47,778 nt of DNA from an uncultured archaeon (GCA_964373695.1 CAYJVT010000007.1:1-47778), one strand, 5' to 3'. Positions 19,260 through 35,582 are shown, numbered from the stretch's first letter. The notes: generated from the letters alone by a model not told the origin. Numbers and translations are program-made.

Positions 19260-19290
19260 TTATTAATTTCTTTTTGTGTTATCTCATCCT

Positions 19291-20103: not shown

Positions 20104-20571
20104 TCATTTCTTCGGCGGTATCTGAACCTGGGCCAGCCTGTCTATGTAAGTGTCGAGCCTTTTCAGTTCCTTCTCCATGGTGAGTATCATCTGGGACGTG
20201 TTTTTGTCTTTCGAGTCGCTCCGGTGTTTTGACATCTCCATCTTTGTCTTCAGTATCTCCTTCTTCAGCTTCAGTATGAATGCGGTCCTCAGGCTCTCCA
20301 GGAGGTCCCCTTCCAGCTTCACGTATATCTTCCTGTCGCCAGTGTTCTTCATCTTGCGTATAATACCGACAAGCTCCAGTAGGTCTAGCGATATGGATAT
20401 TGACGACAGTGAATATCCTGTCTTTTTAGCGATATCGTCGAGAGAGAGCGGCTTGTTCTCCACCAGAAGGGACGATATTATCATGCCGTGGACCTCGCTG
20501 TAGCCCAGCGTCGAGGCTACTGTCGAGAAAGTCGAATATACGCTTTTCCTGAACTCCATGTCGTCTCCCAT
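20104..20571 (-). CDS. GbsR/MarR-family transcriptional regulator
   Basis: LG....GMI...LL....PLSLDDIAKKTGYSLSSIS..L..L...GI wHTH; GDRKIY wing. Confidence 0.82.
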   Translation of the reverse strand: MGDDMEFRKSVYSTFSTVASTLGYSEVHGMIISSLLVENKPLSLDDIAKKTGYSLSSISISLDLLELVGIIRKMKNTGDRKIYVKLEGDLLESLRTAFILKLKKEILKTKMEMSKHRSDSKDKNTSQMILTMEKELKRLDTYIDRLAQVQIPPKK

Positions 20572-20636
20572 AAACTATCTCCAGGTAATGATTTGTAGAA
20601 GTTTTAACGTTTATATAGTTTGAAAAGCCATATTAT

Positions 20637-20664
20637 TTATAACTTTTAGAAATTCATAAAAGTT
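20637..20664. promoter_or_regulatory. TATA box plus palindromic operator (TTATAAC-TTTTAGAAATTCATAAAA-GTT)
   Basis: The 18-mer TTATAACTTTTAGAAATT is identical to 34160-34177 upstream of sod. Confidence 0.7.
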
Positions 20665-20687
20665 AATTCATGTTGGGAGGGTTCCGA

Positions 20688-23600
20688 ATGGTAAACGCAT
20701 ATCCGCAGGCAATTGAGAAGAGCAGGAGCGATTTCGCAGAGGTCGCGACTTCGCCATATGTGAAGGATTATTCTATTGAAAGGAAGCAGCGTCTTGTGGC
20801 TTTGCTGCCCGAGGACGCCCGCATCCTCAAATTCCATCAGTCTTTATGCCCTGGATGCGTAGACGAGGAGAAATTCGACATTATGAAGATAGACTCGGTC
20901 ACGTTCGCAAGGCACAACAAGGTATGGATAATGAAGCAGTGCGCCGAGCACGGCGTTTACAAGGAGCTTTCCTGGGGCGACTACGAGTTGTACAAAAAAG
21001 CGGAAAGATTCCAGGACCCCGGAATAAAGATACTCAATCCTCATATTGACAAGTCGCAGTTCGAGATAGACTGCCCGACTGACTGCGGCCTTTGCGTCGA
21101 GCACGAATCGCACACAGGCCTCGGCAATATTGTCGTTACAAACCGATGTGACCTGACATGCTGGTACTGCTTGCCAGGCGAAGAAGAGTTGTTAGTCAAA
21201 AAAAACGGAATTGTATCTCTTGAAAAAATAGAAAATCTGACTGATGCAAACAGCCAGGCAATGAAAATCAAAGTTAATGATATTGAAGGTGAATTTACAG
21301 CTTTGGAAGGTGCCGAGGCCCTTGCATTCAGTTCGGGCATTGCAGCATGGACAAAAATAAAGAAAGTTTTCAGAAGGCCTTATAATGGCTCTTTGCTTGA
21401 GATAAGAACTCGGACAGGCAGGCACATCAAGGTTACGCCAGAGCACAGGATTGCATTAATCGCAGGCAAAAATCTTTTAAAGAAGCCAGCCAGTGAGTTG
21501 CAGATTGGCGACAGGCTTTTGGCAAGCATAGCTTTGCCTGCCGCACAGGAGATTGAGATAGACCTCCTTGAAGCATTTTCAATTATTCCCGATATGGAGA
21601 AACAGAAAATATATGTCCATAATGTAAGGACAGCTCTTGAAGGCAGTGCAGGCGGGCTTTTTTACAGCTGGCGCTCAAGGGACACAATGCCTCTTTCTGA
21701 ATTTTACAAGCTGCCGGATACCAATCATGAAGTGACTTTCGGAAGGGATGCAAGCAATGAAAGGCTTCCAAGAAAGCTGAAGATTAGTAAGGATTTGGCA
21801 AAAATCATAGGCTACTTCATTTCAGACGGCCATTATACATACAAGGATCTGCGCATAACATGCAAAGACAAAATGCATGCTGTTGAGATTATAGATTGCA
21901 TAAAGAGACTAGGTATCAAGCACAGCATTCTCGACCTCGAAAAGCATGGCAAGGCGCCTCAGATTGTAATCGGTTCAAGGAACATGCGACTTATTTTCAA
22001 GCACGTTCTAAACATTCCTGAAAAAGCTTCAGGGAAGAGGCTTCCGGGGATAATTTTTGGCATGCCATATGAGTTAAAGGCAGCATTGTTGAGCGGCTTG
22101 TTTAATGGAGACGGCTTTGTGACACGCGGTAAGAGGCACGCCAGCATGGGAATAGCTACTGTTTCCAGAGGATTGGCAAGGGATATTTCATATCTTCTTT
22201 CTTCATTTGGCATATTTTGTCGTATATATTCTGTTCCTAAAGAAAAAATAAAAGGCGCGAATTATGATTTACATAAAATCTACATATCAGGCAATGACAT
22301 GGAGAAGCTTATTCCTATTCTAGACCTTAGGCAGGGCCACAAGGCAAGGCTTCTCGGTCTTACGCCAAGAAGAGGTGCGAGAATTGAGAAGTTGGGAGAT
22401 TTTGTTATAGACCATGTAAAGGAAATCATGAAAAGCGAAATAAATGAATTTGTATACGACATTGAAGTAGAAAATCCGGAGCATGTTTTCTTGGCTGGTG
22501 ACGGCATTTTAGTCAGCAATTGCTTCTTTTACGCTAAAGAAGGGGAGCCAATATACGAACCCACGATGGAGCAGATAAAGTTCATGCTCAAGAGAATGAG
22601 GAACGAGAAGCCTGTAGGCGCCAATTCGGTGCAGTTCACTGGCGGCGAGCCTACCCTCCGTGAGGACCTGCCCGAGATAGTGAAGACGGCCAAGGACATG
22701 GGCTATAACCATGTCCAGCTCAACACAAACGGCATAAACCTTTCAAGGGATCCGCAGCTATCCGTCAATCTGCGCACCGCCGGGGTCAGCAATCTTTACA
22801 TGAGTTTCGACGGCATGACGCCGGAGACAAACCCGAAGAACTATTGGGAGGCGCAGCAGGCAATAGACAACTGCGCCAAGGCGAACATCGGCGTCGTTCT
22901 CGTGCCCACCGTGATAGGGGGCATCAACGACCACGAGCTCGGCGACATAATAAGGTTCGGCATCGGAAACATAGGGAAGGTCAGGAGCGTCAACTTCCAG
23001 CCGGTTTCATTGGTAGGAAGGATGCCTGATGCCCTTCGCAAGAAGCAGAGAATCACCATACCTGGCGCCATAAAGCGCATCGAGGCACAGACCGACGGGC
23101 AGATAGGCCGCGAACATTGGTTCCCTGTGCCTTGCGCCAAGCAGATAACCGATTTTATAGAGTCAGTAAAGCAGGAGCCCAAATATAGGCTCTCCATACA
23201 TTTCCAGTGCGGCATGGCGACTTACATATTCAAGGACGGCAACAGGATAGTGCCTCTGCCGGAGTTCTTCGACGTGGAGGGATTCTTCGACTATCTGGGC
23301 CAGCTCACTAGGGAGATAGAGGCGGCAAAGTTCAGGAAGCTCAGGACCACATGGTCGCTTGCCAAGCTCATGGTCAAGATAAGTAGGTATGTCGACGAGG
23401 ATAAGAAGCCGAAGAACCTCAAGTTCGTAAGGATGCTTGCAGGGGCTGTCGGCGGCTCCAATTATCATGGACTGGCGGAATTCCACATGAACTCGCTGTT
23501 CCTGGGGATGATGCACTTCCAGGACCCGTACAACTGGGACATAGACCGCATACACAAGTGCGATATTCACTACGCGACGCCTGACGGCCGCGTGCTTCCT

Positions 23601-23963
23601 TTCTGCACGTTCAACGTCATCCCGGAGCTCTACAGGGACCGAATACAGAGGAAGTTCAGCATCCCTGCGGTGGAATGGGAGAAGAAAACCGGTAAGAAGC
23701 TGAACGAGGACAAGCATCACAGGAAGTTCACGAAGGAGGAAATCCAGAGCATAGTCGGCAACTTCAACCAGTACAGGCGCTCCATGACCAAGGTGGTCCC
23801 GGAGAGCGACTGGGGAGAGGAGGCTTTTGAGCCCATGCCGGCAGCGACTTCAGGAGGATTCGTGCCGCTTCAGATGCTCGGCGCCCCGCAGCCTGCGCAT
23901 AAAAAAGCGACGATGGAGAACCCTGCTGGAGGCGGCTGCGGCTCCGGCACGTGCGGCTGCTAA
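20688..23963 (+). CDS. tes: Radical SAM enzyme of the MJ0619/Tes (GDGT-MAS, tetraether lipid synthase) family, interrupted by an intein (precursor 1091 aa, spliced 640 aa)
   Basis: N-terminal SLCPGC...KQCAEHG metal site, CPTDCGLCVEH auxiliary cluster motif, TNRCDLTCWY|CFF SAM-cluster motif, FTGGEPT, QLNTNG, C-terminal KCDIHYATPDGRVLPFCTFN; GGAGG RBS before ATG 20688. Confidence 0.85.
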   Translation: MVNAYPQAIEKSRSDFAEVATSPYVKDYSIERKQRLVALLPEDARILKFHQSLCPGCVDEEKFDIMKIDSVTFARHNKVWIMKQCAEHGVYKELSWGDYELYKKAERFQDPGIKILNPHIDKSQFEIDCPTDCGLCVEHESHTGLGNIVVTNRCDLTCWYCLPGEEELLVKKNGIVSLEKIENLTDANSQAMKIKVNDIEGEFTALEGAEALAFSSGIAAWTKIKKVFRRPYNGSLLEIRTRTGRHIKVTPEHRIALIAGKNLLKKPASELQIGDRLLASIALPAAQEIEIDLLEAFSIIPDMEKQKIYVHNVRTALEGSAGGLFYSWRSRDTMPLSEFYKLPDTNHEVTFGRDASNERLPRKLKISKDLAKIIGYFISDGHYTYKDLRITCKDKMHAVEIIDCIKRLGIKHSILDLEKHGKAPQIVIGSRNMRLIFKHVLNIPEKASGKRLPGIIFGMPYELKAALLSGLFNGDGFVTRGKRHASMGIATVSRGLARDISYLLSSFGIFCRIYSVPKEKIKGANYDLHKIYISGNDMEKLIPILDLRQGHKARLLGLTPRRGARIEKLGDFVIDHVKEIMKSEINEFVYDIEVENPEHVFLAGDGILVSNCFFYAKEGEPIYEPTMEQIKFMLKRMRNEKPVGANSVQFTGGEPTLREDLPEIVKTAKDMGYNHVQLNTNGINLSRDPQLSVNLRTAGVSNLYMSFDGMTPETNPKNYWEAQQAIDNCAKANIGVVLVPTVIGGINDHELGDIIRFGIGNIGKVRSVNFQPVSLVGRMPDALRKKQRITIPGAIKRIEAQTDGQIGREHWFPVPCAKQITDFIESVKQEPKYRLSIHFQCGMATYIFKDGNRIVPLPEFFDVEGFFDYLGQLTREIEAAKFRKLRTTWSLAKLMVKISRYVDEDKKPKNLKFVRMLAGAVGGSNYHGLAEFHMNSLFLGMMHFQDPYNWDIDRIHKCDIHYATPDGRVLPFCTFNVIPELYRDRIQRKFSIPAVEWEKKTGKKLNEDKHHRKFTKEEIQSIVGNFNQYRRSMTKVVPESDWGEEAFEPMPAATSGGFVPLQMLGAPQPAHKKATMENPAGGGCGSGTCGC
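21168..22520 (+). mobile_element. Intein (451 aa) with LAGLIDADG homing endonuclease
   Basis: Starts CLPG (block A), IKVTPEH (block B TxxH), IIGYFISDG and LLSGLFNGDG LAGLIDADG helices, VYDIEVE (block F), ends LVSN followed by +1 Cys; visibly more AT-rich than the exteins. Confidence 0.95.
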
Positions 23964-24008
23964 GCTTCGCTTTTTAATATTTTTGTTTTATACTTTTCTG
24001 TGATGATT

Positions 24009-24266
24009 ATGGGCAAGTATATTATAGAATACGACGAAAAGGGATGTATAGGGGCCGGCGTCTGCGCCGCCTTCTCCGAGAAGGACTGGGAAATCGCTGC
24101 GAACGGCAAGGCAGTGCTGAAGGGCGGAAAGTTCGACGACGCCAAGGGCGTATGGACAAAGGAAATAGACGAGCAGGACCTTCCGGCGAATAAACAGGCT
24201 GCCGAGGGCTGCCCTGCGCTTGTCATCCATATCTTTAATAAAGACACTGGAGAAAAAGTATTTTAG
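24009..24266 (+). CDS. Monocluster ferredoxin (probably [3Fe-4S])
   Basis: CIGAGVCAA (second Cys replaced by Ala) and AAEGCPALVI. Confidence 0.82.
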   Translation: MGKYIIEYDEKGCIGAGVCAAFSEKDWEIAANGKAVLKGGKFDDAKGVWTKEIDEQDLPANKQAAEGCPALVIHIFNKDTGEKVF

Positions 24267-24278
24267 GAGTGGTTTGTA

Positions 24279-24557
24279 TTGCATTGTTGCATCAGGACTG
24301 TCGAAACCGACAAGAAAGGGATGCCGAAGACCGCGGGCGCCATCAACGGAGTGATGATGAAGCGCCAGGTCCCAAACGAGGCGCCTATTTTGGTTATTAA
24401 CGTCTCGTCTGTTGACGGTTATCTGAAGAAGATCGGGAAATCCGGAGGCAAGGCGATTTCCGAGAAAATAAATGTAGGGGACATGGGCTTTTATGTAAGA
24501 TTTAAGGACACTGAAGGCAATACTATAGGTATCTGGGAAGATCTGCAAAGAAACTGA
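24279..24557 (+). pseudogene. N-terminally truncated VOC/glyoxalase-family protein
   Basis: GAING.MMKR...V.SVD..LKKI.KSGGK...VGDMGFY.RFKDTEGN.IGIWE is the C-terminal part of a VOC domain; the HFEI...FY..IFGW N-terminus is absent and only 12 nt separate it from the upstream stop. Confidence 0.55.
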
Positions 24558-24617
24558 ATTCTTTGAGATCTTGAAGGAATCTTTGATTCCTTCACAAGAA
24601 ATCAAGAAGCGATTTTC

Positions 24618-25202
24618 ATGGAAGCAGAAACGCAAATTATCACGAAGGACATGACGATAGGCGAAGTCATCGAGAAATACCCAGAAACAGCAGACATAAT
24701 GATGAGCTTCGGGCTCCACTGCTTCGGCTGCCATGTCAATGTGTACGAGACTCTGGAACAGGGAATAGTGAGCCACGGCATGGAAGATGCCACTTTGCAC
24801 AGCATGCTTGACGAGATGAACAAGGCAATCGCTAAGCGCGTCACTATGCCGGCCGAGGAAATAAAGAAGCTCGAGGGCGGGAAGGTAATAGTGACGGATT
24901 TTGCCGCAAAGAAAGTGCTCGAAATAATGAAGAGCAACGAGAAGGAAGGATGGGGCCTCAGAATAGGCGTGAAGCGCGGCGGTTGCTCAGGATATTCTTA
25001 TCTGATGGATTTCGAGCAGTCCCCTGCACACGATGACGCTGTTTTTGAGAAGGATGGCCTCAAGTATTTCGTCGATCCCAGCAGCATGCAGATGATGAAC
25101 GGAATAGTCGTTGATTATGTGGAGAGCCTGCAGGGCGCGGGTTTCAAGATAGAGAACCCGAATGCCAAGAGCTCGTGCGGTTGCGGCAAGAGCTTCGGTT
25201 AA
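24618..25202 (+). CDS. DUF1858-like domain fused to an A-type Fe-S carrier (IscA/SufA/ErpA, HesB family)
   Basis: ITKDMTIGEVIEKYPET...FGLHCFGC (DUF1858); GGCSGYSY...NPNAKSSCGCGKSF (A-type carrier). Confidence 0.88.
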   Translation: MEAETQIITKDMTIGEVIEKYPETADIMMSFGLHCFGCHVNVYETLEQGIVSHGMEDATLHSMLDEMNKAIAKRVTMPAEEIKKLEGGKVIVTDFAAKKVLEIMKSNEKEGWGLRIGVKRGGCSGYSYLMDFEQSPAHDDAVFEKDGLKYFVDPSSMQMMNGIVVDYVESLQGAGFKIENPNAKSSCGCGKSFG

Positions 25203-25236
25203 TTCTATTTATATAACTTATGTAGATAGTTCTGTT

Positions 25237-25371
25237 ATGGAAACTGTAACTATTCCAAAATCAGAATATAAAAAATTAAAGAAATTGAAAGAAGTCGATC
25301 ACGAACTTCTGATTAAAATAGTTAAAGGTCTAGAAGACACAAAGGCTGGCAGAATCAAGAAATGGGAATAA
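25237..25371 (+). CDS. Small orphan antitoxin-like protein (44 aa)
   Basis: METVTIPKSEYKKLK...GLEDTKAGRIK resembles archaeal RelB-type antitoxins; no intact toxin gene follows. Confidence 0.5.
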   Translation: METVTIPKSEYKKLKKLKEVDHELLIKIVKGLEDTKAGRIKKWE

Positions 25372-25502
25372 TTATTTATTCGGAAATTTATCGCTTATTT
25401 TCCTCACCAGCCAAATAGTCAGCCTATTAATTATAAATGAATAGTTGACTATATATTTAAGGCATTATTTTGCACCCACAGCAGGACAAATTAGATTTTT
25501 CA

Positions 25503-26264
25503 TTATTTCAGAAGGTTCTTCATGTTTCCTACGATTTCCTCGAACATAGCCTTTATTTTCTCGCTGCGAAGGACGGCAGGTATAGGGTTCTCCGACGCCA
25601 TTTCCTTTGACATGGGCACGCTTCCAAGGAAAGGCACGCCGAGCTCTTTTGCGAGCTCCATCCCTCTATCCATGCCGAACATGTCCCCTTCCATGTTCTC
25701 GACTATACCGACATGCTTTCCGAAGTGCCTTGCCGCTAGCGCGGATTTCTTCGCGTCCATGATAGCGAGAGGCTGCGGCGTTGTCACCACGACTACAGCT
25801 GACACGTCAAGGAACTGAAAGACTGTTAGAGTGCTGTCGTGCGTTCCAGGAGCCATGTCTATTATGAGGTAATCTATGTCGCCCATGTCGGATTTTTCCA
25901 TGAGCTGCATTATGGCGGAATGGATGAGGGGCCCGCGCCATATGGTAGGAGTGTCGCCAGACTGGAAAAATGCCATCGACAGTACCTTCATCCCGTATTT
26001 TTCCACCGGCATGAGTCTGCCGTCCTCGATGCGGAAGTTTTCCTCGATGCCGAGCATCTTGCCAACATTGGGGCAGTCGATGTCGGCGTCCATGAGCCCG
26101 ACTTTGTAGCCTTTCTTTGCCAGAAGCGCGGCCATGTTCACTGCAATCGTCGTCTTCCCGACGCCGCCTTTCCCCGAAAGCACGGCTATCTTGTATTTTA
26201 TCCTGTCGAGATTGGCCTTGAGCTTGTTGAACTGCTCATGTTTCTGCAGAGATGGTGTTTCCAT
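25503..26264 (-). CDS. mrp: Mrp/ApbC/Nbp35 family Fe-S cluster carrier ATPase
   Basis: SGKGGVGKTT, DADIDCPN, WRGP, IDMAPGT, VTTPQ, GIVENM. Confidence 0.9.
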   Translation of the reverse strand: METPSLQKHEQFNKLKANLDRIKYKIAVLSGKGGVGKTTIAVNMAALLAKKGYKVGLMDADIDCPNVGKMLGIEENFRIEDGRLMPVEKYGMKVLSMAFFQSGDTPTIWRGPLIHSAIMQLMEKSDMGDIDYLIIDMAPGTHDSTLTVFQFLDVSAVVVVTTPQPLAIMDAKKSALAARHFGKHVGIVENMEGDMFGMDRGMELAKELGVPFLGSVPMSKEMASENPIPAVLRSEKIKAMFEEIVGNMKNLLK

Positions 26265-26309
26265 GCTATTCAGAATGCGTATAATTATTAATGCCTTTAA
26301 TCAGGCGAG

Positions 26310-26642
26310 TCATAAAAACGACGCGGCAGCGGTTACGACTGCAGTGATTATTGAAGCCATGATTATGATTTTCCACGACTTCCTCCTGTCGGCTTCGGTG
26401 AAGCGCTTGTTAGTATGATGCACGCCTTTCTCGTCCTCATGACTGCCGCGCAGAGCCATATATACACAGAAGCTCTTGGAATATTCAATTAGCGAGACGC
26501 ATGTTATGAAGACCAGAATTGCAAGAAATACAGGCGCGTATGCATAGGATGCCATTGAAATCATAATAAATGCAATTCCTATGGCAAGCCTTTTTTTCCT
26601 GCCTGTTGGAGTGATGTTGCAGATTCCGGGTATGTACGTCAT
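26310..26642 (-). CDS. Small membrane protein (possibly DUF2892/YgaP-like)
   Basis: CNI...GRKKR followed by TM helices and a conserved-looking FC. Confidence 0.5.
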   Translation of the reverse strand: MTYIPGICNITPTGRKKRLAIGIAFIMISMASYAYAPVFLAILVFITCVSLIEYSKSFCVYMALRGSHEDEKGVHHTNKRFTEADRRKSWKIIIMASIITAVVTAAASFL

Positions 26643-26675
26643 GAAAAAACTATGACGGAATGTTTCTTAAGGTTC

Positions 26676-27506
26676 TCATCGCCCTATGTTCTTGCTTATG
26701 CCGTAGAACACCACGCCGCCAAAAGATATGTACGACATGAGGTTGAATAGTATGTTGACTTTCCCCGGATAATGCCTGACCAGCGGGAGCATGCTCTTGC
26801 CCATGAACTTCTTCGGCCCGCTGTAGTTTTCCATTATGTATTTCAGCGTGTAGTCGTATGACATGACCAGGCGCCTTAAGGCGAGCTCTTTTATGACATT
26901 CAGAGGGGTGTGCATGGTCTGCAGCGCCGTTTCGCCGTTTTTTATGGCCATCAGCGCGCCTTCCTCGCTGTCCGCCTCCACGATGGTCATGCCGTTGCCA
27001 AGCATCTCCCTGCAGTGGGCATCGCTTCCGGCTACCATATTCAGGTGCATCCTTCTTGCGAATTTATGGGCCCGGCGGTTTGATATCCTGTCTATGCTGA
27101 GCGAGTTGAAGACCTCGGCGGCGTCGCATAATGCCGCCTTTTCTCCAAGGCCTATCTCCTTTATGGCGAAAGGATGGACGCCTATGGAAACCCCTCCCTG
27201 GGAATGTATCTCGTCCACTGTCTCTTCGGCGCTCATCCTGGGCCTTATGACCTCCTGTATTCCCAGCGCCGTTATGTCCCCGTCTAAGGTGCTTATTTCC
27301 TCCCCCCTTATCACGAGGACGCCGTATTTCTTCGCGTATTTCGCGGCCTGTTCGGCGCCGAACATCGTGTTGTGGTCCGTTATGACGATGGCATCAAGGC
27401 CCTTCAGCGCGGCGCCTTCCACCATTTCCTCCGGAGAGTTTATGCCGTCGTAATAGACCTTCGTCCCGTGCGAATACGTAGTGTGGGAGTGCAGCTCCAT
27501 TTTCAT
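26676..27506 (-). CDS. PHP-domain metal-dependent phosphoesterase
   Basis: ELHSHTTYS, ITDHN, GEEIST, HPF, AGSDAH. Confidence 0.88.
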   Translation of the reverse strand: MKMELHSHTTYSHGTKVYYDGINSPEEMVEGAALKGLDAIVITDHNTMFGAEQAAKYAKKYGVLVIRGEEISTLDGDITALGIQEVIRPRMSAEETVDEIHSQGGVSIGVHPFAIKEIGLGEKAALCDAAEVFNSLSIDRISNRRAHKFARRMHLNMVAGSDAHCREMLGNGMTIVEADSEEGALMAIKNGETALQTMHTPLNVIKELALRRLVMSYDYTLKYIMENYSGPKKFMGKSMLPLVRHYPGKVNILFNLMSYISFGGVVFYGISKNIGR

Positions 27507-27605
27507 TTCTGAAACACCTCATAAATCTTTGTTTCGGAAATTAAACGGAACAGATGTTGCGTTTTCATACCTAATTATCTTGGAGTCGAGGATTTAAATG
27601 GAAGT

Positions 27606-27776
27606 TCACCTGCCGCGGAAAACTGTCGAGTAAGCCTGCTTCATCCTTTTCTCAACAATTCCAGGTCTGTTCTGATAGTTGCAGGTTTCTCCATAAACCA
27701 TCTTATCGAATAAGTCAAGTACCCTGTTGAAATATACCCTGACTCTTCTGGACGACCCGCCTGTTCTTAATTTCAT
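27606..27776 (-). CDS. Hypothetical basic micro-protein (56 aa)
   Basis: Hand-translated MKLRTGGSSRRVRVYFNRVLDLFDKMVYGETCNYQNRPGIVEKRMKQAYSTVFRGR*; fills the gap between co-oriented genes. Confidence 0.35.
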   Translation of the reverse strand: MKLRTGGSSRRVRVYFNRVLDLFDKMVYGETCNYQNRPGIVEKRMKQAYSTVFRGR

Positions 27777-27796
27777 GCAAGAAGTATTTCGGATAA

Positions 27797-28255
27797 TTAT
27801 TTAATCTCCTTCAGGACTTCCTTGCTGTGCCCCTCTGGCTTGACCTTTTCATGTATGCGCTTTATAACTCCGTTTTTGTCTATGATGAAAGTGGTCCTGG
27901 CGATGCCCATGTACTTCCTGCCGTACATGTTCTTCTCGACCCACACGCCGTACTTATCGCACGTCTCATGCTGCAGGTCCGAGAGAAGAGTGAAGCGCAG
28001 CTTGTACTTGTCGATGAACTTCTGGTGGCTCTCGGGAGGGTCGGCGCTTATGCCTATTATCTTCACGCCCTTGGTCTCGAATTTCCTGCTGTCGGAGCTG
28101 AATTCGCACGCCTCTGTCGTGCAGCCCGGCGTGTCGTCCTTGGGATAGAAGTAAAGCACTACATACCGGCCCCTGAAGTCTGACAGCCTGACCGCCTTGC
28201 CTTCGTGGTCTGACAGCTTGAAATCCGGGGCCTTGTCGCCTTCTTTCAGTCCCAT
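27797..28255 (-). CDS. bcp: Thioredoxin-dependent peroxiredoxin (BCP/PrxQ)
   Basis: YFYPKDDTPGCTTEACEF. Confidence 0.93.
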   Translation of the reverse strand: MGLKEGDKAPDFKLSDHEGKAVRLSDFRGRYVVLYFYPKDDTPGCTTEACEFSSDSRKFETKGVKIIGISADPPESHQKFIDKYKLRFTLLSDLQHETCDKYGVWVEKNMYGRKYMGIARTTFIIDKNGVIKRIHEKVKPEGHSKEVLKEIK

Positions 28256-28439
28256 AGTCTAACACCCAAATATTCCTGCGGAGTCATGTATACGAAAAGG
28301 AAATGTGACTGTATTTCCGCTTTTTTTGTTTAAGACCGAGCACCTATAATATGGTATATGGTACGCCGTTCCTTATTGTGCGCATCTCGGCATCTATTCT
28401 GAGAAAATTTTCATCCTTGACGCGCCTGTCAACTAACAT

Positions 28440-29684
28440 CTACACACCGAGTGCGGACTTTATCTTGCTCGCGGCGCGCTTGGCCTGGAATTTGGTGTAA
28501 AGCGTCGCCAGCTTGACCACGTTCTTGCCCCTTGCTAAATCAGTCAAATCTTCTCCAGACAGCACATCGCTGAGTATGTTCATTTCCTCATCGCTGAACT
28601 TCTCGAACATCTCCCTCACGTGTTCTATCTCATTTAGCTTGTCGCCCCTTTCCTTCTGCCATCTCTCGTTGTAAGGCTGCAGTCCCTTCTTGGAGACGTC
28701 GCCGTTCTTTACCGCTTCGTTTATGGCATCGCCTGCGATGCGGCCTCCGAAAATGCTTTCCGCGATGCCGCCTCCGTGAATAGGATTGACCATATTGACC
28801 GCGTCGCCCACCCCGAGGATGCCGTTGCCCACCATATCCTTCCATAAACCGCCTACAGGCACGAGGCCGCACACGGTCTCCACGACCTTGCCTTCATTGA
28901 GCCAGTCCTGCGTCTCTATCCATTCGTCAAGGAATTCCTTTGCGGTCTTCCCGTACCATATGCCGCCGACGCCTATGCCGACGTTGCCCGAGTCTTGGCC
29001 CTTCGGGAAGTTCCATATGTAGCCTCTTGGCGTTATCTTCTCTCCGAGCCATATTTCTATCATCTCTGGATCTCGGTTCTTTATGTTTGTCATGAGGTAC
29101 TGGAATGCGGAATCCACAAGATGGAGTTTCTTCTGGCTCCTTATGCCGGCCTTGCGCAGCGTCATGGATTCGACGCCGTCCGCAGCCACTACGACCTTGC
29201 TCCTTATCTCAAAGTCGTCGCCGCCTATGTTGGCCTTCACGCCTTTCACGGTCGTTATCGTGCTGCCGGCCGCATCCTGAGTTTTTTCAAGCATGAGATC
29301 ATTCACGGTGGCCTTGGTCATCACCATCGCACCTTTCTTCGCCGCGTTCTCCGCGAGCCATTTGTCGAAAGCCTTCCTTTCAAGGATGTATCCGTCCGTA
29401 CCAGGCCCTTTGATTTTTATTTCCTTGCCGTTGGGCGCATAGACATAAGCACCCATGATGCGCTGCCTCCAGACATGCCAGGGCAGCTTCATCCCGAGCT
29501 CATCCATGTTCTTCTCGGAGACGCCCTCGCCGCATCTCACCGGGGCCCCTATTTCCTGTCTCTTCTCGAGGAGCAAAACGTTCAAGCCGTGTTCTGCGCA
29601 TCTCTCGGCAGTCGTGCTGCCTGCCGGGCCTGCGCCGACTATCACAACGTCATATTCGTTCCTTATGAGTTTGTTGAGAACCAT
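28440..29684 (-). CDS. Geranylgeranyl reductase family (digeranylgeranylglycerophospholipid reductase)
   Basis: DVVIVGAGPAGS, RCGEG, AADGVES, PRGYIWNFPK (P.GY.W.FP), VGDA..MVNPIHGGGI. Confidence 0.9.
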   Translation of the reverse strand: MVLNKLIRNEYDVVIVGAGPAGSTTAERCAEHGLNVLLLEKRQEIGAPVRCGEGVSEKNMDELGMKLPWHVWRQRIMGAYVYAPNGKEIKIKGPGTDGYILERKAFDKWLAENAAKKGAMVMTKATVNDLMLEKTQDAAGSTITTVKGVKANIGGDDFEIRSKVVVAADGVESMTLRKAGIRSQKKLHLVDSAFQYLMTNIKNRDPEMIEIWLGEKITPRGYIWNFPKGQDSGNVGIGVGGIWYGKTAKEFLDEWIETQDWLNEGKVVETVCGLVPVGGLWKDMVGNGILGVGDAVNMVNPIHGGGIAESIFGGRIAGDAINEAVKNGDVSKKGLQPYNERWQKERGDKLNEIEHVREMFEKFSDEEMNILSDVLSGEDLTDLARGKNVVKLATLYTKFQAKRAASKIKSALGV

Positions 29685-29686
29685 AA

Positions 29687-29917
29687 TCAGAACCCTTTCG
29701 ATGGCAGTTTTATGAGGGCAAGCGGCTTTTCTTTGCCGTCCTTTTCAAAGACTTTCAGGGCGCCGACAGGGCAGAACCTGACGCATATCTGGCAGTCTAT
29801 GCACTTGTTGTTGTCCACCAGGATGTCCCTTCCTTGGTCGAGCTCCAGGGCATCGACTGGGCACACGCCGACGCATCCGCCGCATGCTATGCATCTTGAA
29901 TCATTTACTTCAAGCAT
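29687..29917 (-). CDS. 2x[4Fe-4S] ferredoxin
   Basis: CIACGGCVGVCP and CIDCQICVRFCP. Confidence 0.92.
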   Translation of the reverse strand: MLEVNDSRCIACGGCVGVCPVDALELDQGRDILVDNNKCIDCQICVRFCPVGALKVFEKDGKEKPLALIKLPSKGF

Positions 29918-30053
29918 ATTGTCCACACCATCTTTGAAATATCTTAATTAAAGCGGAAACGCATTTATAGTCATGCAAAGAAATATTTCTTTGCTGACTG
30001 TATGTGAAGCAAATTCATAATTTTGATTTTTCACCGTTTTCTTCGCTATATAC

Positions 30054-30938
30054 CTACTTGAATTTGTCGAGGAACATTGATATGTCGATATTTTCTATGT
30101 CCTGCTCTGCTAGGGGCTTCTCGCTTATCTGAGGCAGGCCTTCCTCGTATGTCGGCTTCTCTTCCCTGTAAAGAACGCCTATGGGTATTCTGTCGCCCCA
30201 CATGTTTGCCGTTTCGAATGCCTTTACCTTGTTGGATGCATCATAACTGGCTTCATCGAGTTTGAAAACCCTGGCCTTGTACCAGTCGGGCGTGTTTATC
30301 TTGTTGTATGTCGAGCACGGCTGGAACACGTCAACGACAGCGAAGCCGTTGTGCTTTATGGCCTCTGCCATGGTTTTCTTGAGACCTGGAATATCAAGAG
30401 CGTATCCTCTGGCGACGAATGTCGCTCCCATCGTTATTGCCAGAGCCAGCGGATTCACCGGTTCTTCAAGAGCGCCTTGGGGCGTTGAATTGGATTTGAA
30501 TCCTTTCTCGCTGGTAGGCGATGTCTGGCCTTTCGTGAGGCCGTAGACCTCGTTATTCTGGATTATGTATGTCATGTTCAGGTTTCGGCGCGCGGTGTGT
30601 ATGAAATGGTTGCCGCCTATTCCGTATCCGTCGCCGTCTCCGGTCACGACTATGACGTTCAGATCGTGATTTGCTATCTTTATGCCGGTTGCAACGGGCA
30701 AAGCCCTGCCGTGAAGCCCTTCGAATCCGTATGCCTTTATGAAATGAGGGGTCTTGCTGCCGCATCCTATGCCCGATACTATCACCGTACTAGCTGGGTC
30801 AAGCTTAGCTTCTGATATGGAAAGCTTCAGCACGGAAAGTATTGAAAAGTCTCCGCAGCCCATGCACCATGTAGGCGCCTCTTTTGTCGTGAGTTCGGCG
30901 ATTGTCGCCCCTTTTTCCAACGCTTTCGTTACGGACAT
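30054..30938 (-). CDS. korB: 2-oxoacid:ferredoxin oxidoreductase beta subunit
   Basis: TWCMGCGDF, SGIGCG, LHGRALP, GDGDGYGIGGNH, YGLTKGQTSPT, QPCSTYN. Confidence 0.92.
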   Translation of the reverse strand: MSVTKALEKGATIAELTTKEAPTWCMGCGDFSILSVLKLSISEAKLDPASTVIVSGIGCGSKTPHFIKAYGFEGLHGRALPVATGIKIANHDLNVIVVTGDGDGYGIGGNHFIHTARRNLNMTYIIQNNEVYGLTKGQTSPTSEKGFKSNSTPQGALEEPVNPLALAITMGATFVARGYALDIPGLKKTMAEAIKHNGFAVVDVFQPCSTYNKINTPDWYKARVFKLDEASYDASNKVKAFETANMWGDRIPIGVLYREEKPTYEEGLPQISEKPLAEQDIENIDISMFLDKFK

Positions 30939-30948
30939 TTCATACGCC

Positions 30949-32733
30949 TCATCTGGCTTCTACAACTGCATTTCTGCTGAATATTATTTCCTTCGAGCTG
31001 TTCTTTTCAACTATGTCCTTTATCCCATGGACTATTTCCTCGGGAAAGAACGGCCTGCCGTCGTACTTCAGTATCCTGTAGTCCGTGTCAAGGCCTGTAA
31101 GTTCCTTTATTATTCCCGAGAGCTGGGATGTCTTGTTGTTCTCTATTATCACGGTGCGCTTCGCGTTTCTTATTATCCTGCCCATGTATTCGTGCGGGAA
31201 CGGGCTGAGATATACTATCTGGCAGAAATTGGTCTTTATGCCTTTCTGTCCCAGCTTTCTCATCGCCTGAAGTATCGGGCCTTTCGTTGAGCCCCATGAA
31301 ATTATTGTCACGTCTGCATCCTTGTCTCCGAAGAATTGTGGCGGAGGCAGTTCGTTCTTGAGATTCTCGAGTTTTCTGAACCTCTTGTGGTGCATCTGGA
31401 CGCGTATTTCCTCCTCCTCACGCTCATAACCCTCCTCATCATGCTCGTAGCTGCTTGCCGTGTGCTGGCCTCCGCTCTGCGATGGGATGCTCCTCGGTGA
31501 TATGCCGTCTTCAGTCAGCTGGTATCTCTTGAAGTCCTTCATGTCGTTGAGATGCTCCTGTGTGAGGAGCTTGCCCCTGTCTATTGATATGTTTGAAGTG
31601 TCGAATGCGGGCATTGACTTGTAGCTCTCGCCAAGGTATTTGTCAGTCAGTACGAAGACTGGAATCTGGTATTTCTCCGCCATGTTGAACGCGTCTATCG
31701 TCCTGTAGAAGCATTCCTCCTGGTCGCCCGGCGCGATTATGGCGCGAGGCGATTCGTCTGTTGAAGCGTGCATGATGAATCTCAGGTCCCCCTGTCCCGT
31801 GTGCGTTGCCATTCCGGTTGCAGGTCCAGGTCTCTGGGCTTCCACTATGACAAGCGGAACCTCGGTTTGGGCTGCGAGGCCCAGACCCTCGACCATTAAA
31901 CAGAAGCCGCCTCCGGATGTGCATGTCATCGCCCTTGCCCCTGCGTAAGCGGCGCCTATGGCCATGTTTATGGCCGCTATCTCGTCTTCAGTGTGCTTTA
32001 CGACTATGTTATAGTTTTTCTCCTGAGTTGCCATCGTCGTCATGACAGATGTCGCCGGCGTCATCGGATACGCGGACAGGAATTTGCATCCGGCCTTTAT
32101 GGCGCCCGCGACTATGGCCTCGTTTCCGGACATGAAAATGGTGTTTTTGCCTGTTCTTTTCTGGAGCCTGTAATCGAACTTGAAATTCTGCTTCACGTAA
32201 TCATAACCGGCTTTTGCGGCCCCGATATTTGCATTCGCTATGTCATCACCTTTCTTCTTGCCGAAATTGTCCCTTATCACCTGATTGAAGAGCTCTATAT
32301 CATAGTCTATCAGCGCCACCGTCGCACCCATGGCCACGACGTTTCTCATTATCTTCCCGCCGTTCTGTTCTGCTATCTTGAGTAGAGGCATTGGGAACAG
32401 ATTTATGTCATCGCGTATTTCGTTACTGTCTATCTGCAGCTTGTCGCCGTCATAGATTATGCCGCCGTTCTGCGACACCTTGCCGGCGTGCTTGTCGACG
32501 GATTCCTTGTTTAGCGCGACGAGGACGTCGGTGTATTTCGTGTGGGCAAAAAGAGGCTCCTCATCGGCTATGACGTCAAGGTGGTTGTGGCCGCCCCTTA
32601 TGAGAGACGGGTATTCGGCCGCTGCGAAGACGTTTAGGCCGCCCCTCATGCACATCCTCGCAAACATGAGGCCTGCATTGAGTATGCCGTCTCCCGCTTC
32701 ACCGGCAATTTTCCAGGAAAATTTGTTTCTCAT
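30949..32733 (-). CDS. korA: 2-oxoacid:ferredoxin oxidoreductase alpha subunit (gamma-alpha fusion)
   Basis: IAGEAGDG, EYPSLIRGGHN, AYPMTPAT, EDEIAA, TSGGGFCLMVE, QRPGPATG. Confidence 0.92.
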   Translation of the reverse strand: MRNKFSWKIAGEAGDGILNAGLMFARMCMRGGLNVFAAAEYPSLIRGGHNHLDVIADEEPLFAHTKYTDVLVALNKESVDKHAGKVSQNGGIIYDGDKLQIDSNEIRDDINLFPMPLLKIAEQNGGKIMRNVVAMGATVALIDYDIELFNQVIRDNFGKKKGDDIANANIGAAKAGYDYVKQNFKFDYRLQKRTGKNTIFMSGNEAIVAGAIKAGCKFLSAYPMTPATSVMTTMATQEKNYNIVVKHTEDEIAAINMAIGAAYAGARAMTCTSGGGFCLMVEGLGLAAQTEVPLVIVEAQRPGPATGMATHTGQGDLRFIMHASTDESPRAIIAPGDQEECFYRTIDAFNMAEKYQIPVFVLTDKYLGESYKSMPAFDTSNISIDRGKLLTQEHLNDMKDFKRYQLTEDGISPRSIPSQSGGQHTASSYEHDEEGYEREEEEIRVQMHHKRFRKLENLKNELPPPQFFGDKDADVTIISWGSTKGPILQAMRKLGQKGIKTNFCQIVYLSPFPHEYMGRIIRNAKRTVIIENNKTSQLSGIIKELTGLDTDYRILKYDGRPFFPEEIVHGIKDIVEKNSSKEIIFSRNAVVEAR

Positions 32734-32827
32734 CTTATCACAAATATTGCGCAACTATAAAAATTGAATACAAATAGTTCCCCTTATAACTTATATCCTT
32801 TTCCGTTTTCACTTAAATACTTTAATA

Positions 32828-32854
32828 ATACATCATGATGTATAGTTGATGTAT
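32828..32854. promoter_or_regulatory. Perfect 16-bp palindrome ATACATCATGATGTAT plus an extra TGATGTAT half-site
   Basis: Read directly from the sequence; between korA and the RHH gene. Confidence 0.6.
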
Positions 32855-32856
32855 AT

Positions 32857-33042
32857 ATGGGATATATAAGATACAAAGTTCCTGAAGAAATGCACCAAAT
32901 TATGAAGGGTGTGTGCGAGAAGCTAGGTTTGAAGGAAAGCGAGATGTCGAGAATAGCCCTGTATGAATATCTGAAGTCTATAAGGGCAATAGAGCGCGGC
33001 GTTAATGGCGGCATAAAGAAGAAGTTCAGGATAAGGCACTGA
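32857..33042 (+). CDS. Small ribbon-helix-helix-like DNA-binding protein
   Basis: YIRYKVPEEMHQ.MK.VC.KLG..ESEMSR.AL.EYL pattern. Confidence 0.6.
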   Translation: MGYIRYKVPEEMHQIMKGVCEKLGLKESEMSRIALYEYLKSIRAIERGVNGGIKKKFRIRH

Positions 33043-33080
33043 CACTAAGCGTTATAAAGATGTTCTTCATATAAAGCAGA

Positions 33081-33317
33081 ATGAGATTGGGCAGGGAGAG
33101 TTTTGAAGCGGCCGCCAGGAATGCCCTGAGACGTGTCTATCCTAAAGGCGCCGAGCCTTCTGACGAAGCTGTGATATACGTAGCTGATGTTATTGGAAGG
33201 ATATACAGCATAGGCCTCCATGATGGCAAGAACAACAAATCTCTCAGCATGCCGTGCCGACGCACGCCCGAAAGGCCCGGAGATGAAGAGGAACTTATAG
33301 TGCGTTCTTACAACTGA
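33081..33317 (+). CDS. Hypothetical protein (78 aa)
   Basis: Only ORF filling the gap; no recognisable motif. Confidence 0.4.
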   Translation: MRLGRESFEAAARNALRRVYPKGAEPSDEAVIYVADVIGRIYSIGLHDGKNNKSLSMPCRRTPERPGDEEELIVRSYN

Positions 33318-33350
33318 AATCAATAGATTTGATACATTCTATTATAATAA

Positions 33351-33475
33351 CCGCCCCCTGAAAGGGGCGGAATTCCAAGCCTAAAAACTACTGGTTCTCG
33401 ATGTAGTTTATTACTATCTTCTGAGAAAAAGAAAGCAATTCATACACATGCTAAAACAAGCGGAATTCTTGCCTT
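33351..33475. repeat. GC-rich hairpin (CCGCCCCCT-GAA-AGGGGCGG) plus a degenerate second element; possible IS200/IS605-type end relic
   Basis: Hairpin at 33351-33370; GCGGAATTC repeated at about 33367 and 33460; ATTCAT...CTAAAA...GGAATTCT resembles IS605 subterminal sequences. Confidence 0.35.
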
Positions 33476-33489
33476 AGAGTTTATTGAAA

Positions 33490-34107
33490 TTATTCTATGT
33501 CGATTATCTTCCCGGAAGAGCCGACGCACACGACCTTCGTGCTGCCCATCACTTCGACGGCCCCTTCAAGCTCGTGGATGTGTCCGCACACCTCTATGTC
33601 AGGCTTCAATTCGTATATGGCCTTCGTCACGGCCTCGCTTCCCTGGAAAGAGAATTTCTCTATGAGGCTGCCTTTTGGATGAACATGAGTGACCATGATT
33701 TTTGTTTTAGCATTTTTCACATAGTTGAAGCCGTTCTTTATTGCCTTGAACATCTCATTGTCCGGCACGTAATTGATGCCTATGTTGCCGCCGCCTGACC
33801 CGAAGAATCCGACGTCGTTTATCATGACGGCATATTTCTGGAGATTCGGTATCTTGTATTCTTTCTCTATTTCCTCTATAGTCTCCTTGCTGTCGTGGTT
33901 GCCGCCGACGAACAGGACTTTTTTTCCTTTCTCAAGAAATGGTCCTATCATGCCTTCCTTGTCAATATCAAATGCCGTCAAGTCCCCTGTTATAATGACT
34001 ACATCCACTTTATACTTGACGGATTTTTCTACCAGCTTTTCAACTGCTTTTTTGTTGCCGTGGAAGTCGCCGGCGACCATTATTCTAAGCTTTGGTTTTT
34101 TCTTCAT
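33490..34107 (-). CDS. Calcineurin-like metallophosphoesterase
   Basis: GDFHG, TGDLT, GGNHD, THVHP, CGHIHE. Confidence 0.88.
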   Translation of the reverse strand: MKKKPKLRIMVAGDFHGNKKAVEKLVEKSVKYKVDVVIITGDLTAFDIDKEGMIGPFLEKGKKVLFVGGNHDSKETIEEIEKEYKIPNLQKYAVMINDVGFFGSGGGNIGINYVPDNEMFKAIKNGFNYVKNAKTKIMVTHVHPKGSLIEKFSFQGSEAVTKAIYELKPDIEVCGHIHELEGAVEVMGSTKVVCVGSSGKIIDIE

Positions 34108-34159
34108 GATTGTCACGTTGAACAATAATCTTATATATGTTTAGTCTTATAACTATATA

Positions 34160-34184
34160 TTATAACTTTTAGAAATTTCTAAAA
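34160..34184. promoter_or_regulatory. TATA box plus perfect 18-bp palindrome TTTTAGAAATTTCTAAAA upstream of sod
   Basis: Palindrome at 34167-34184; 18-mer identity with the tes promoter. Confidence 0.72.
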
Positions 34185-34205
34185 TCAGAGATTTGAAGTG
34201 GTAGA

Positions 34206-34808
34206 ATGACTCATAAGCTTCCAGAGCTCCGGTATGCGTACAACGCCCTTGAGCCCTTCATTGACGAACAGACGATGAGGATACATCACACCAAGCATCA
34301 TCAGGCTTACATAGACAATCTCAATGCCGCACTGGAGGGGCACGACGCTCTCAAGGCGAAGACGGCCGAAGACCTTCTTAAGGGCCTGAATGCTATCCCT
34401 GAAAGCATACGTGCTGCAGTGCGAAATCACGGGGGCGGGCATGCGAACCACTCATTTTTCTGGCCTCTCCTGAAGAAGGATGTAAAACCCGAAGGCGATA
34501 TTCTTGATGCGATAACTGAAAGGTTCGGCAGCTTCGACAAGTTCAAGGAGGAGTTCACGGCCGCCGCTATGTCCCGTTTCGGCAGCGGCTGGGCTTGGCT
34601 TATCGTAAGCAACGGCAAGCTGGAAGTGACGAGCACCGCCAATCAGGACAGTCCGCTGAGTGAAGGCAAGACTCCGCTGCTGGGCATCGACGTCTGGGAA
34701 CATGCCTATTATCTCAAGTACCAGAACAAGAGGAACGAATACGTGTCGGCCTTTTTCAGCGTCATCAACTGGGACAAGGTCAACGAGAATTTCGCCGCCG
34801 CGAGATAA
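34206..34808 (+). CDS. sod: Fe/Mn superoxide dismutase
   Basis: [38 protein letters not shown]. Confidence 0.96.
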
Positions 34809-34871
34809 GGAACTTTTAGTATTTTTCGAATCTGCAAAACCTTTAAATCGTATAGTGTCAAGTTGAGTGTT

Positions 34872-35135
34872 ATGACTAACTGGAAAGTGGAGCATGACAG
34901 GCCGAACTGCATAGGATGCGGAGCCTGCGCAGCCGTTTGCCCAGGCTCGTGGACGATGAGCCCCGACGACGGCAAGTCAGACCTCGTTGGCTCAAGGGAA
35001 AAGAGGGAAGGCGACGAAATCGTTCTCGAGGAGCTCGAGTTCGACGACATAAAGTGCAACAAGGAAGCTGCGGAATCGTGCCCGGTCAATGTTATACACA
35101 TAATAGACCTCAAGAGCGGGGAGAAGGTAATTTAG
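34872..35135 (+). CDS. Monocluster [4Fe-4S] ferredoxin
   Basis: CIGCGACAAVCP and AAESCPVNVI; paralog of 24009..24266. Confidence 0.88.
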   Translation: MTNWKVEHDRPNCIGCGACAAVCPGSWTMSPDDGKSDLVGSREKREGDEIVLEELEFDDIKCNKEAAESCPVNVIHIIDLKSGEKVI

Positions 35136-35144
35136 GTGGTAATG

Positions 35145-35582
35145 ATGGTCAGTGTGGGGGAGAAAGCGCCCGATGTCGAGCTGAAAGATACGGCCGGCAA
35201 TCTCGTAAGGCTTGGGAGCTTCAGGGGCAAAAAAGTCCTCCTTTCATTTTTTCCGTTCGCGTTTTCACCCGTCTGCACCAAGGAATTCGGGTGCTTCATG
35301 GATGACATGGAAAAGTTCAGGGACAAAGGCGTTGAGGTTGCGGGGATTTCTGTCGACAGCCACTGGTCGAACAAGGCTTTTGCCGACAGCATCGGCTCTG
35401 ACTTCCCGCTTCTATCTGACTTTGACAAGAAAGCTTCAAGGGCCTTTGGTGTACTGCGCAATGACGGGTTCTCCGAGAGGGCTTATTTTCTCATAGATGA
35501 AAACGGCGTGGTCATATACAAGCATGTGATGAGCAACCCGGCTGAAAAGCTGGATGATGAGGAACTGCTGAAGAACATATAG
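35145..35582 (+). CDS. Peroxiredoxin (AhpE/AhpC-TSA family)
   Basis: FFPFAFSPVCTKE, GISVDS, LLSDF, ERAYFLID..G. Confidence 0.88.
   Translation: MVSVGEKAPDVELKDTAGNLVRLGSFRGKKVLLSFFPFAFSPVCTKEFGCFMDDMEKFRDKGVEVAGISVDSHWSNKAFADSIGSDFPLLSDFDKKASRAFGVLRNDGFSERAYFLIDENGVVIYKHVMSNPAEKLDDEELLKNI

Follow-up and report, generated by a model that had tools for sequence, protein, structure and literature searches.

In a window of 47,778 nucleotides from the genome of an uncultured archaeon (GCA_964373695.1, CAYJVT010000007.1:1-47778; "the window" denotes this whole stretch), one 18-nucleotide sequence (the 18-mer) occurs upstream of two sets of genes: tes, which encodes tetraether lipid synthase (GDGT-MAS), and a cluster that begins with the superoxide dismutase (SOD) gene sod and continues with genes for a ferredoxin (fdx), a peroxiredoxin (prx) and an aquaporin (aqp). 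Our comparative analysis indicates that the 18-mer belongs to a 20-bp inverted repeat, and that this repeat is probably the operator of a winged-helix regulator of the Mj223/GbsR type, encoded divergently from tes; through it, the regulator would co-control tetraether genes, iron-sulfur (Fe-S) supply, electron donors and oxidant defence. An earlier reading of the window, made from the sequence alone (the sequence-only reading), had proposed a redox regulon of tes and sod; its motif has stood, while its target set has widened and its redox signal has found no support.

The genome of the window (G000) is a metagenome-assembled genome (MAG) from groundwater, assigned to Candidatus Aenigmatarchaeota (DPANN), with 1,020,131 bp in 60 contigs, 91% completeness and 48.6% G+C; its genus, g1, also contains genomes G001 and G002. 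The comparison has been conducted on the genomes of 40 relatives and on a public set of 80 loci that carry the regulator gene.

The 18-mer is part of an inverted repeat next to a TATA-like box

The 18-mer, TTATAACTTTTAGAAATT, occurs exactly at 20637-20654 and at 34160-34177, as the sequence-only reading had reported; allowing two mismatches adds no further copy in the window, 100 dinucleotide shuffles of the window contain no match, and in the whole genome these two copies are the only ones at zero to one mismatch. The copy next to tes is located between tes and the divergent winged helix-turn-helix (wHTH) gene on the minus strand. The 18-bp palindrome TTTTAGAAATTTCTAAAA, described in the same reading, has also been recovered by our scan of the genome: it is perfect at 34167-34184, its tes equivalent at 20644-20661 has two mismatched positions, and these two copies are the best matches in the genome.

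When the regulator-tes spacers of the relatives are aligned, an inverted repeat of 20 bp, CTTTTA-N8-TAAAAG, emerges as the conserved unit; it is situated right after a TATA-like box of the TTTAWAA type, and in 41 unique orthologous tes promoters, the TTTAWAA-type element is located directly 5' of the inverted repeat. In both copies of the window, the hexamer TTATAA is found immediately 5' of the repeat, which bears out the repressor-type position that the sequence-only reading had assigned to the motif. Aligned with this unit, the 18-mer corresponds to the TATA-like box, the left arm and six spacer bases of the inverted repeat, and the perfect palindrome at 34167-34184 sits within the candidate operator of sod (34166-34185). 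In an alignment of the tes and sod spacers, read without its two G001 rows, the likeness between the two intergenic regions ends with the TATA-like box and the repeat; as the spacers are otherwise unlike, a copied intergenic region is an unlikely origin of the sod copy, and we have rejected it.

A few perfect matches to the pattern elsewhere have been discarded. Those in the intron-bearing tRNA-Lys(UUU) genes of two relatives (G020, C19:646, locus L048; G012, C14:3718, locus L050) are attributed to chance and arise from the pairing of the intron with the anticodon arm. Pattern matches within the coding DNA of G016, G018 and G039 have been set aside as probable chance occurrences.

The repeat is conserved upstream of tes and accompanies the regulator gene

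The product of tes is a match at equivalog level: it scores 647.5 bits against the NCBIfam model rSAM_GDGT_ether (cut-off 450), matches the solved GDGT-MAS structure (PDB ID: 7TOL) with an E-value of 4.9e-99, and contains the Pfam domains Radical_SAM, intein and LAGLIDADG_3. The other gene identities of the sequence-only reading (wHTH regulator, SOD, ferredoxin, peroxiredoxin and aquaporin) are likewise right by Pfam, NCBIfam and PDB matches; its start codon for tes, at 20670, has been moved to 20688, which is most likely the true start because the motif GGGAGGG precedes it and the orthologues of the same genus start there.

In 51 of the 80 public loci with the regulator gene, tes is encoded on the opposite strand, no more than 3 kb away. 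Upstream of these tes genes, the repeat is perfect in 18 loci, has one mismatch in 21 and two in seven, and is missing in five, i.e. it is present in 39 of the 51 at no more than one mismatch and in 46 at no more than two; elsewhere in the 467 kb of locus DNA, only 8 sites have no more than one mismatch. The 29 regulator loci without tes contain only 3 of these 8, in 167 kb, so that the repeat is not a generic feature of divergent promoters. The module of regulator, repeat and tes extends to MAGs that carry the labels Iainarchaeum, Naiadarchaeum and Heimdallarchaeota; the Heimdallarchaeota contig is short and may be misbinned. In one locus (L007, G028, C27), about 66 bp of the regulator-tes spacer, TATA-like box included, are present in three tandem copies.

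In ten of the 40 relatives, the scan has found tes preceded by a perfect repeat. Among these ten are G016, G017 and G026, in which the repeat stays at tes although the regulator gene is on another contig or 280 kb away, and G013, in which tes is arranged tail-to-tail with the regulator gene; in G013, tes, the regulator gene, sod and padR all occur within 8 kb. When both tes and the regulator gene are present (22 genomes), the best site has no mismatch in 10 genomes, one in 5, two in 5 and four in 2; in the 8 genomes that have tes and no detected regulator gene, the best sites have 2, 2, 3, 3, 3, 4, 4 and 5 mismatches. Families f1 and f3 each show the same contrast among their own members, and f5 is a borderline case (one mismatch versus two). 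The regulator gene is detected in 22 of the 30 genomes that bear tes, versus 1 of the 11 that do not. Since the relatives are not independent and some genomes are incomplete, we regard this co-occurrence as strong circumstantial evidence for a regulator-operator pair, and not as proof.

With high confidence, then, we assign the repeat upstream of tes as a predicted operator. Judged by the spread of its sequence, the unit of regulator, operator and tes is an old one, found across Aenigmatarchaeota and in some other MAGs with DPANN labels.

Six strong sites in the genome outline a candidate regulon

As the bare pattern is no commoner than its reversed control, sites have been scored with a matrix, built from the 41 unique tes operators, all of which come from genera other than g1; the null distribution came from 60 replicates of a second-order Markov model for the intergenic DNA of G000 (147 kb). 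This genome-wide matrix scan, which had been proposed beforehand in the sequence-only reading, has returned six sites of at least 20 bits (Table 1), all intergenic and located 8-60 nucleotides from a start codon, with the next best site at 15.1 bits. By chance, 0.2 such sites are expected per replicate (maximum 2 in 60), and the best site in the reversed genome sequence scores 19.3 bits.

Besides tes and the sod operon, the sites precede padR-sufC-sufB, a ferredoxin-like gene and two genes of B12-binding radical S-adenosylmethionine (SAM) proteins, of 611 and 487 residues. The ten radical SAM genes of the genome fall into tes (22.7 bits), four B12-binding members with upstream scores of 21.9, 20.7, 14.7 and 9.1 bits, and five others that score below 0. 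The four B12-binding genes, found within a genome of 1 Mb, are located at C1:44668-47963, C1:84807-87473 and C1:92136-93689. Relatives have up to six or more genes of this kind, almost only in genomes that bear tes; this class of enzymes cyclises, methylates and desaturates tetraethers (bioRxiv 10.1101/2025.10.20.683597), and by their sequences the members in G000 are candidate tetraether-tailoring enzymes in DPANN.

Within the genus, the tes and padR-suf sites are retained in both G001 and G002, the site of the ferredoxin-like gene is perfect in G001 and scores 19.2 bits in G002, and a perfect site precedes both the G001 orthologue of the 611-residue radical SAM gene and a paralogue in G002. 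Beyond it, the ranges differ: the tes site is phylum-wide, the padR-suf site is present in g1 and in two further genera only, g6 (G007 and G023) and g13 (G014), and the sites at sod-fdx-prx, the ferredoxin-like gene and the B12-binding radical SAM genes occur in g1 only. The proposal of a tes and sod regulon has thus been upheld as regards the motif, which is rare, is conserved at tes across Aenigmatarchaeota and tracks the regulator; the link with sod is restricted to the genus, and the set of targets is wider than had been proposed. The regulon of the sequence-only reading is thus supported in part; the predicted sites widen its theme to Fe-S proteins, radical SAM enzymes and lipid tailoring, as well as antioxidants, and our confidence in a regulon of sod and Fe-S genes in genus g1 is moderate.

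Two weaker matches have not been counted as targets: a 13-bit site located 260 nucleotides upstream of the CTP synthase gene, which is kept in G001 and is too weak, and a 14-bit copy in G002 (L243, C39:4874), located 21 nucleotides 5' of the gene for an iron transporter of the VIT1 family, whose orthologue in G000 (C20:11874-12551) lacks one.

The padR-suf promoters (C35:1000-1015 in G000; loci L143-L162) also contain a second conserved palindrome, of the ATGTATGT...ACATAC type, at the start of padR. From its sequence and position, this is probably the operator of PadR itself, in which case the suf operon would be under two regulators.

The antioxidant cluster has a probably young site that changes position

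The sod, ferredoxin, peroxiredoxin and MIP-family channel genes are spaced tightly enough for one operon, and repeat copies occur both upstream of sod and in the gap between sod and the ferredoxin gene. In G000, the upstream site is strong and the copy in the gap is decayed; the counterparts of the latter (34813-34832) in G001 and G002 have one mismatch only. G001 has good sites at both positions, and G002 has its good site in the gap. Each of the three genomes therefore retains at least one good site in the antioxidant cluster, with shifting positions.

A stretch of 54 nucleotides that holds the repeat and both divergent TATA-like boxes is identical in G000 and G001, next to a sod coding region that is only 74.6% identical overall and 49% identical at third codon positions. 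At the protein level, the same two genomes (locus L033 for G001) share 81% identity in SOD, versus 97% in the regulator and 98% in the N-terminal part of Tes; sod being far more diverged than either, allele replacement or recombination at the sod locus is suggested. In our reading, the antioxidant link predicted from these sites is real, and it is young and does not reach beyond the genus.

The regulator is a MarR-type protein without cysteine

A profile of 15 orthologues of the regulator has a sole strong match in the PDB, MJ0223 (PDB ID: 1KU9), with an E-value of 2.7e-11 over 136 of 147 positions. The AlphaFold2 model (mean predicted local distance difference test, pLDDT, 86.6) consists of a helix, the wHTH domain and two long C-terminal helices, and its best Foldseek match is again 1KU9, with a template modelling (TM) score of 0.64. 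Curated models are missed: the protein scores 23.1 bits against Pfam MarR (cut-off 24.6), 28.4 bits against NCBIfam CudC (cut-off 218), 23.7 bits against NCBIfam MsvR (cut-off 220), and has a weak match below the cut-off to NCBIfam Lrs14. The label "GbsR/MarR-like", given in the sequence-only reading, is thus valid for the branch of the fold and does not extend to equivalence with GbsR or CudC; according to the model, the fold is that of a MarR-type dimeric wHTH protein from a distant, Mj223/GbsR-type (COG1510-like) branch.

The 155-residue regulator contains no cysteine, and an alignment of 22 orthologues has no conserved cysteine column, which leaves the earlier designation of a redox regulon unsupported; direct sensing through a thiol or a cluster is excluded for this protein. 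Residue His28 is invariant among the orthologues.

Near the regulator's own TATA element, the repeat has a weak match of 10.8 bits. On the regulator's strand, positions 20590-20619 contain the TATA-like TATATAAA followed by TTAAAACTTCTACAAATC, which resembles the 18-mer with four mismatches and is kept in G001; by this resemblance, TTAAAACTTCTACAAATC may be a weak half-site for self-regulation.

In 12 of the 80 public loci (L089, L090, L093, L102, L105, L111-L113, L130, L139, L141 and L142), a mini-protein of 42-51 residues with four CxxC pairs, i.e. eight cysteines, is encoded directly after the regulator; its gene begins 1-31 nucleotides past the regulator's stop codon or overlaps it. Its cysteine pattern and gene position make it a possible partner of the regulator for metal or redox input; neither tblastn nor a scan for the cysteine pattern has found a homologue in G000.

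Other features of the window

The two copies of the 18-mer are separated by 13 kb. Around and between them (19276-32754), genes of Fe-S, redox and lipid functions are clustered, which are listed in Table 1 with the elements and genes discussed above; none of the six entries of this cluster has a strong copy of the repeat.

Table 1. Features of the window, and strong sites on other contigs of the same genome (contig:position). Scores are matrix scores.
Feature	Position	Strand	Remarks
YgfZ-like GCV_T protein	19276-20103		
Winged-helix regulator, 155 residues	20104..20571	-	Mj223/GbsR-type branch of the MarR superfamily; no cysteine
TATA-like box of the tes promoter, TTTATAA (predicted)	20636..20642	+	from sequence; same element in orthologous promoters
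18-mer, copy 1	20637..20654	+	exact match
Candidate operator at tes, CTTTTA-GAAATTCA-TAAAAG	20643..20662	no strand	both half-sites perfect; 22.7 bits
tes, tetraether lipid synthase (GDGT-MAS)	20688..23963	+	LAGLIDADG intein at about 21168-22520; Shine-Dalgarno GGGAGGG at 20675-20681
DUF1858 fused to a HesB/IscA domain	24618-25202		
Mrp/NUBPL Fe-S carrier	25503-26264		
Second AhpC/TSA peroxiredoxin	27797-28255		
Geranylgeranyl reductase	28440-29684		
2-oxoacid:ferredoxin oxidoreductase	30054-32754		
18-mer, copy 2	34160..34177	+	exact match; TTATAA TATA-like box at 34160-34165
Candidate operator at sod, CTTTTA-GAAATTTC-TAAAAT	34166..34185	no strand	one outer mismatch (G to T); 21.4 bits, fifth-best in the genome
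sod, Fe/Mn superoxide dismutase	34206..34808	+	Pfam Sod_Fe_N, Sod_Fe_C
Decayed internal repeat copy	34813..34832	no strand	between sod and the ferredoxin gene; left half intact; 7 bits
4Fe-4S single-cluster ferredoxin	34863..35135	+	Pfam Fer4_15, E-value 7.8e-13
AhpC/TSA peroxiredoxin	35136..35582	+	
MIP-family channel (aquaporin)	35591..36247	+	
Site at the 106-residue ferredoxin-like gene	C36:5430		26.6 bits; Fer4_15, E-value 0.0015 (weak)
Site at padR-sufC-sufB	C35:951		22.5 bits
Site at the 611-residue B12-binding radical SAM gene	C1:47984		21.9 bits
Site at the 487-residue B12-binding radical SAM gene	C1:44629		20.7 bits

Proposed mechanism

At tes and sod, the repeat would occupy the stretch of about 20 bp that separates the TATA box from the expected start of transcription, and a regulator dimer bound there would block the recruitment of RNA polymerase; a position downstream of the TATA box is the usual geometry of archaeal repressors, and dimerisation is textbook behaviour for MarR proteins. 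We infer both steps, the binding to the repeat from the co-occurrence described above. The repeat follows a TATA-like element at tes, sod, the 487-residue radical SAM gene and the ferredoxin-like gene, where it would overlie the site of polymerase recruitment; at the 611-residue gene, the transcript is probably near-leaderless, with the right arm of the repeat as its TATA box. Positions upstream of the TATA element are seen at padR-suf, at a distance of 0-20 nucleotides, and, in G001 and G002, at the internal promoter of the ferredoxin gene, at about 10 nucleotides; in these positions, the bound regulator could either block transcription factor B (TFB) or activate.

The ancestral target would have been tes alone, with a later expansion of the regulon at the level of the genus, in which the g1 lineage would have recruited additional operators at sod-fdx-prx-aqp, padR-sufCB, the ferredoxin-like gene and the B12-binding radical SAM genes.

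For any particular signal of the regulator, our confidence is low. One candidate is iron or Fe-S status, hinted at by the invariant histidine and by analogy with CioR, which has been discussed as metal-responsive (PMC11837568). Another is oxidant stress, perceived through a partner such as the eight-cysteine mini-protein, none of which was found in G000, and a third, by analogy with FabT, is a lipid intermediate.

Alternative readings

Several observations weigh against a regulon of the breadth proposed here. Upstream of sod, the copy in G002 is degenerate, with a spacer of 7 nucleotides, and the other genera searched have no repeat at this position, their best sites having 2-6 mismatches; these genera include three whose SOD is 64-70% identical. 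In G001, the closest relative, the site of the 487-residue radical SAM gene has already decayed (11.3 bits), and every site at B12-binding radical SAM genes of other genera scores below 4 bits. The half-sites are rich in A and T and look like TATA boxes; genome-wide counts of the bare pattern show no excess over the reversed-pattern control, so that the case rests on the placement of the sites. The genomes in which no regulator was found are partly incomplete (65-91%), the relatives are not independent samples, and the regulator has neither a cysteine nor another obvious sensor.

These observations could mean that tes alone is controlled, and that the site at sod and the other additional sites are young, non-functional look-alikes, e.g. 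pieces of promoters that were copied, or that drifted, in A/T-rich intergenic DNA. The lack of sod and B12-binding radical SAM sites outside the genus, the decay of individual sites in G001 and G002 and the match of the bare-pattern count with its control all point this way; we nevertheless consider this reading improbable, as six intergenic sites lie within 60 nucleotides of a start codon where 0.2 are expected, their targets are functionally coherent, a promoter island is conserved amid the diverged sod region, all three genomes of the genus keep a good site in sod-fdx-prx, two more genera have the padR-suf site, and the likeness of the tes and sod spacers stops at the TATA-like box and the repeat. 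That the repeat is bound by another factor, such as PadR or another protein, or is a structural element, e.g. back-to-back TATA boxes, seems to us very unlikely. The TATA-like half-sites and the presence of padR itself among the targets would suit it; against it, the tes repeat tracks the Mj223-type gene even where the two are unlinked, padR is present in G005, G006 and G011, from which tes, the regulator and the repeat are all missing, the padR promoters have their own separate palindrome near the start codon, and the tes-less regulator loci are nearly devoid of sites (3 in 167 kb).

A further reading keeps the same regulator and the same sites, and takes the signal to be a membrane-lipid intermediate or the state of the membrane, as in FabT, with suf, sod and ferredoxin in the service of the Fe-S-rich lipid enzymes. 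We hold this to be possible, though on the unlikely side. MarR-family proteins typically bind small lipophilic ligands, and this one has no cysteine for thiol or cluster sensing; the most widespread and ancestral target is tes alone, and the B12-binding radical SAM class, which tailors tetraethers (bioRxiv 10.1101/2025.10.20.683597) and is almost restricted to genomes with tes, belongs to the predicted regulon. On the other side, five of the six target units also fit a logic of iron, Fe-S or oxidants, and the co-transcription of the eight-cysteine mini-protein with the regulator in 12 of 80 loci hints at a metal or redox input.

The differing positions of the repeat would also allow a position-dependent switch that balances the supply of Fe-S clusters against the demand for them. 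In it, the regulator would repress the consumers of Fe-S, i.e. tes, the B12-binding radical SAM tailoring enzymes, the ferredoxins and SOD, from sites between the TATA box and the start of transcription, and would have another effect, possibly activation, from sites upstream of the TATA box, at padR-suf and the internal fdx-prx promoter; in our view, this proposal is doubtful. If such a switch is true, it would be an archaeal counterpart, on another fold, of IscR-type and iron-sparing circuits, and would tie the synthesis of the tetraether membrane to iron or oxidant status.

Significance

The reading that we prefer, i.e. a common operator of the Mj223/GbsR-type regulator at tes and the other targets, adds to a known kind of pair, the MarR-type regulator with its operator, a set of targets that had not been described before. 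Although the organism is uncultured, the locus comes with a named protein, a 20-bp site of defined sequence and six promoters, and hence with a first testable circuit for the control of membrane-spanning lipids in archaea. If this reading is true, it shows how the expression of a lipid pathway that is rich in Fe-S and sensitive to oxygen is coupled, in a DPANN archaeon of reduced genome, with the assembly of clusters, with electron donors and with the defence against oxidants. This would bear on the environmental response of the tetraether lipids whose signals serve as palaeoclimate proxies; the regulon would also illustrate cleanly how such a set grows, from one ancestral target to an expansion at the level of the genus.

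Comparison with known systems

Our full-text literature searches for a transcription factor of tetraether synthase have returned only expression studies, in which stress-dependent changes of tes mRNA are reported (PMC10465181). FabT of streptococci (PDB ID: 6JBX), a repressor of fatty-acid synthesis for the membrane, which our searches have matched distantly (Foldseek rank 43; NCBIfam E-value 0.008), is similar in that a MarR-fold protein acts on a palindrome in the promoters of membrane-lipid synthesis genes, with binding being predicted in our case; it differs in the domain of life, in the lipid chemistry and in the operator, and the regulon proposed here also holds Fe-S and antioxidant genes. 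The co-repressor of FabT is acyl-acyl carrier protein (acyl-ACP).

The connection of suf, Fe-S enzymes and oxidant defence by one regulator, as proposed here, is shared with the bacterial regulators IscR/SufR and the archaeal SurR and MsvR; for SurR and IscR, the outcome is set by the position or the type of the site. These proteins belong to another branch of the fold, and they sense through cysteines, as cluster ligands or as a CxxC switch, whereas our regulator has none.

The closest counterpart is Mj223 (MJ0223, PDB ID: 1KU9), the best match in both profile and fold, which has about 150 residues, like our regulator, and the same winged helix with two long C-terminal helices. For the GbsR branch of the MarR family, Mj223 provides the structural template; it lacks the choline cage region of GbsR (PMC6207618). 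Archaeal regulators of the GbsR/Mj223 type are without an assigned role, and the review of the family describes no consistent neighbourhood for their genes (PMC6207618); here, the partner is consistently tes. The characterised GbsR-type proteins are repressors (PMC6207618, PMC11837568), and in the case of CydE and CioR, the repressed operons are those of cytochrome bd, which protect against stress (PMC11837568). As dimeric repressors at sites that overlap the promoter, GbsR, OpuAR, CydE and CioR have the same placement that we propose for the regulator at tes and sod.

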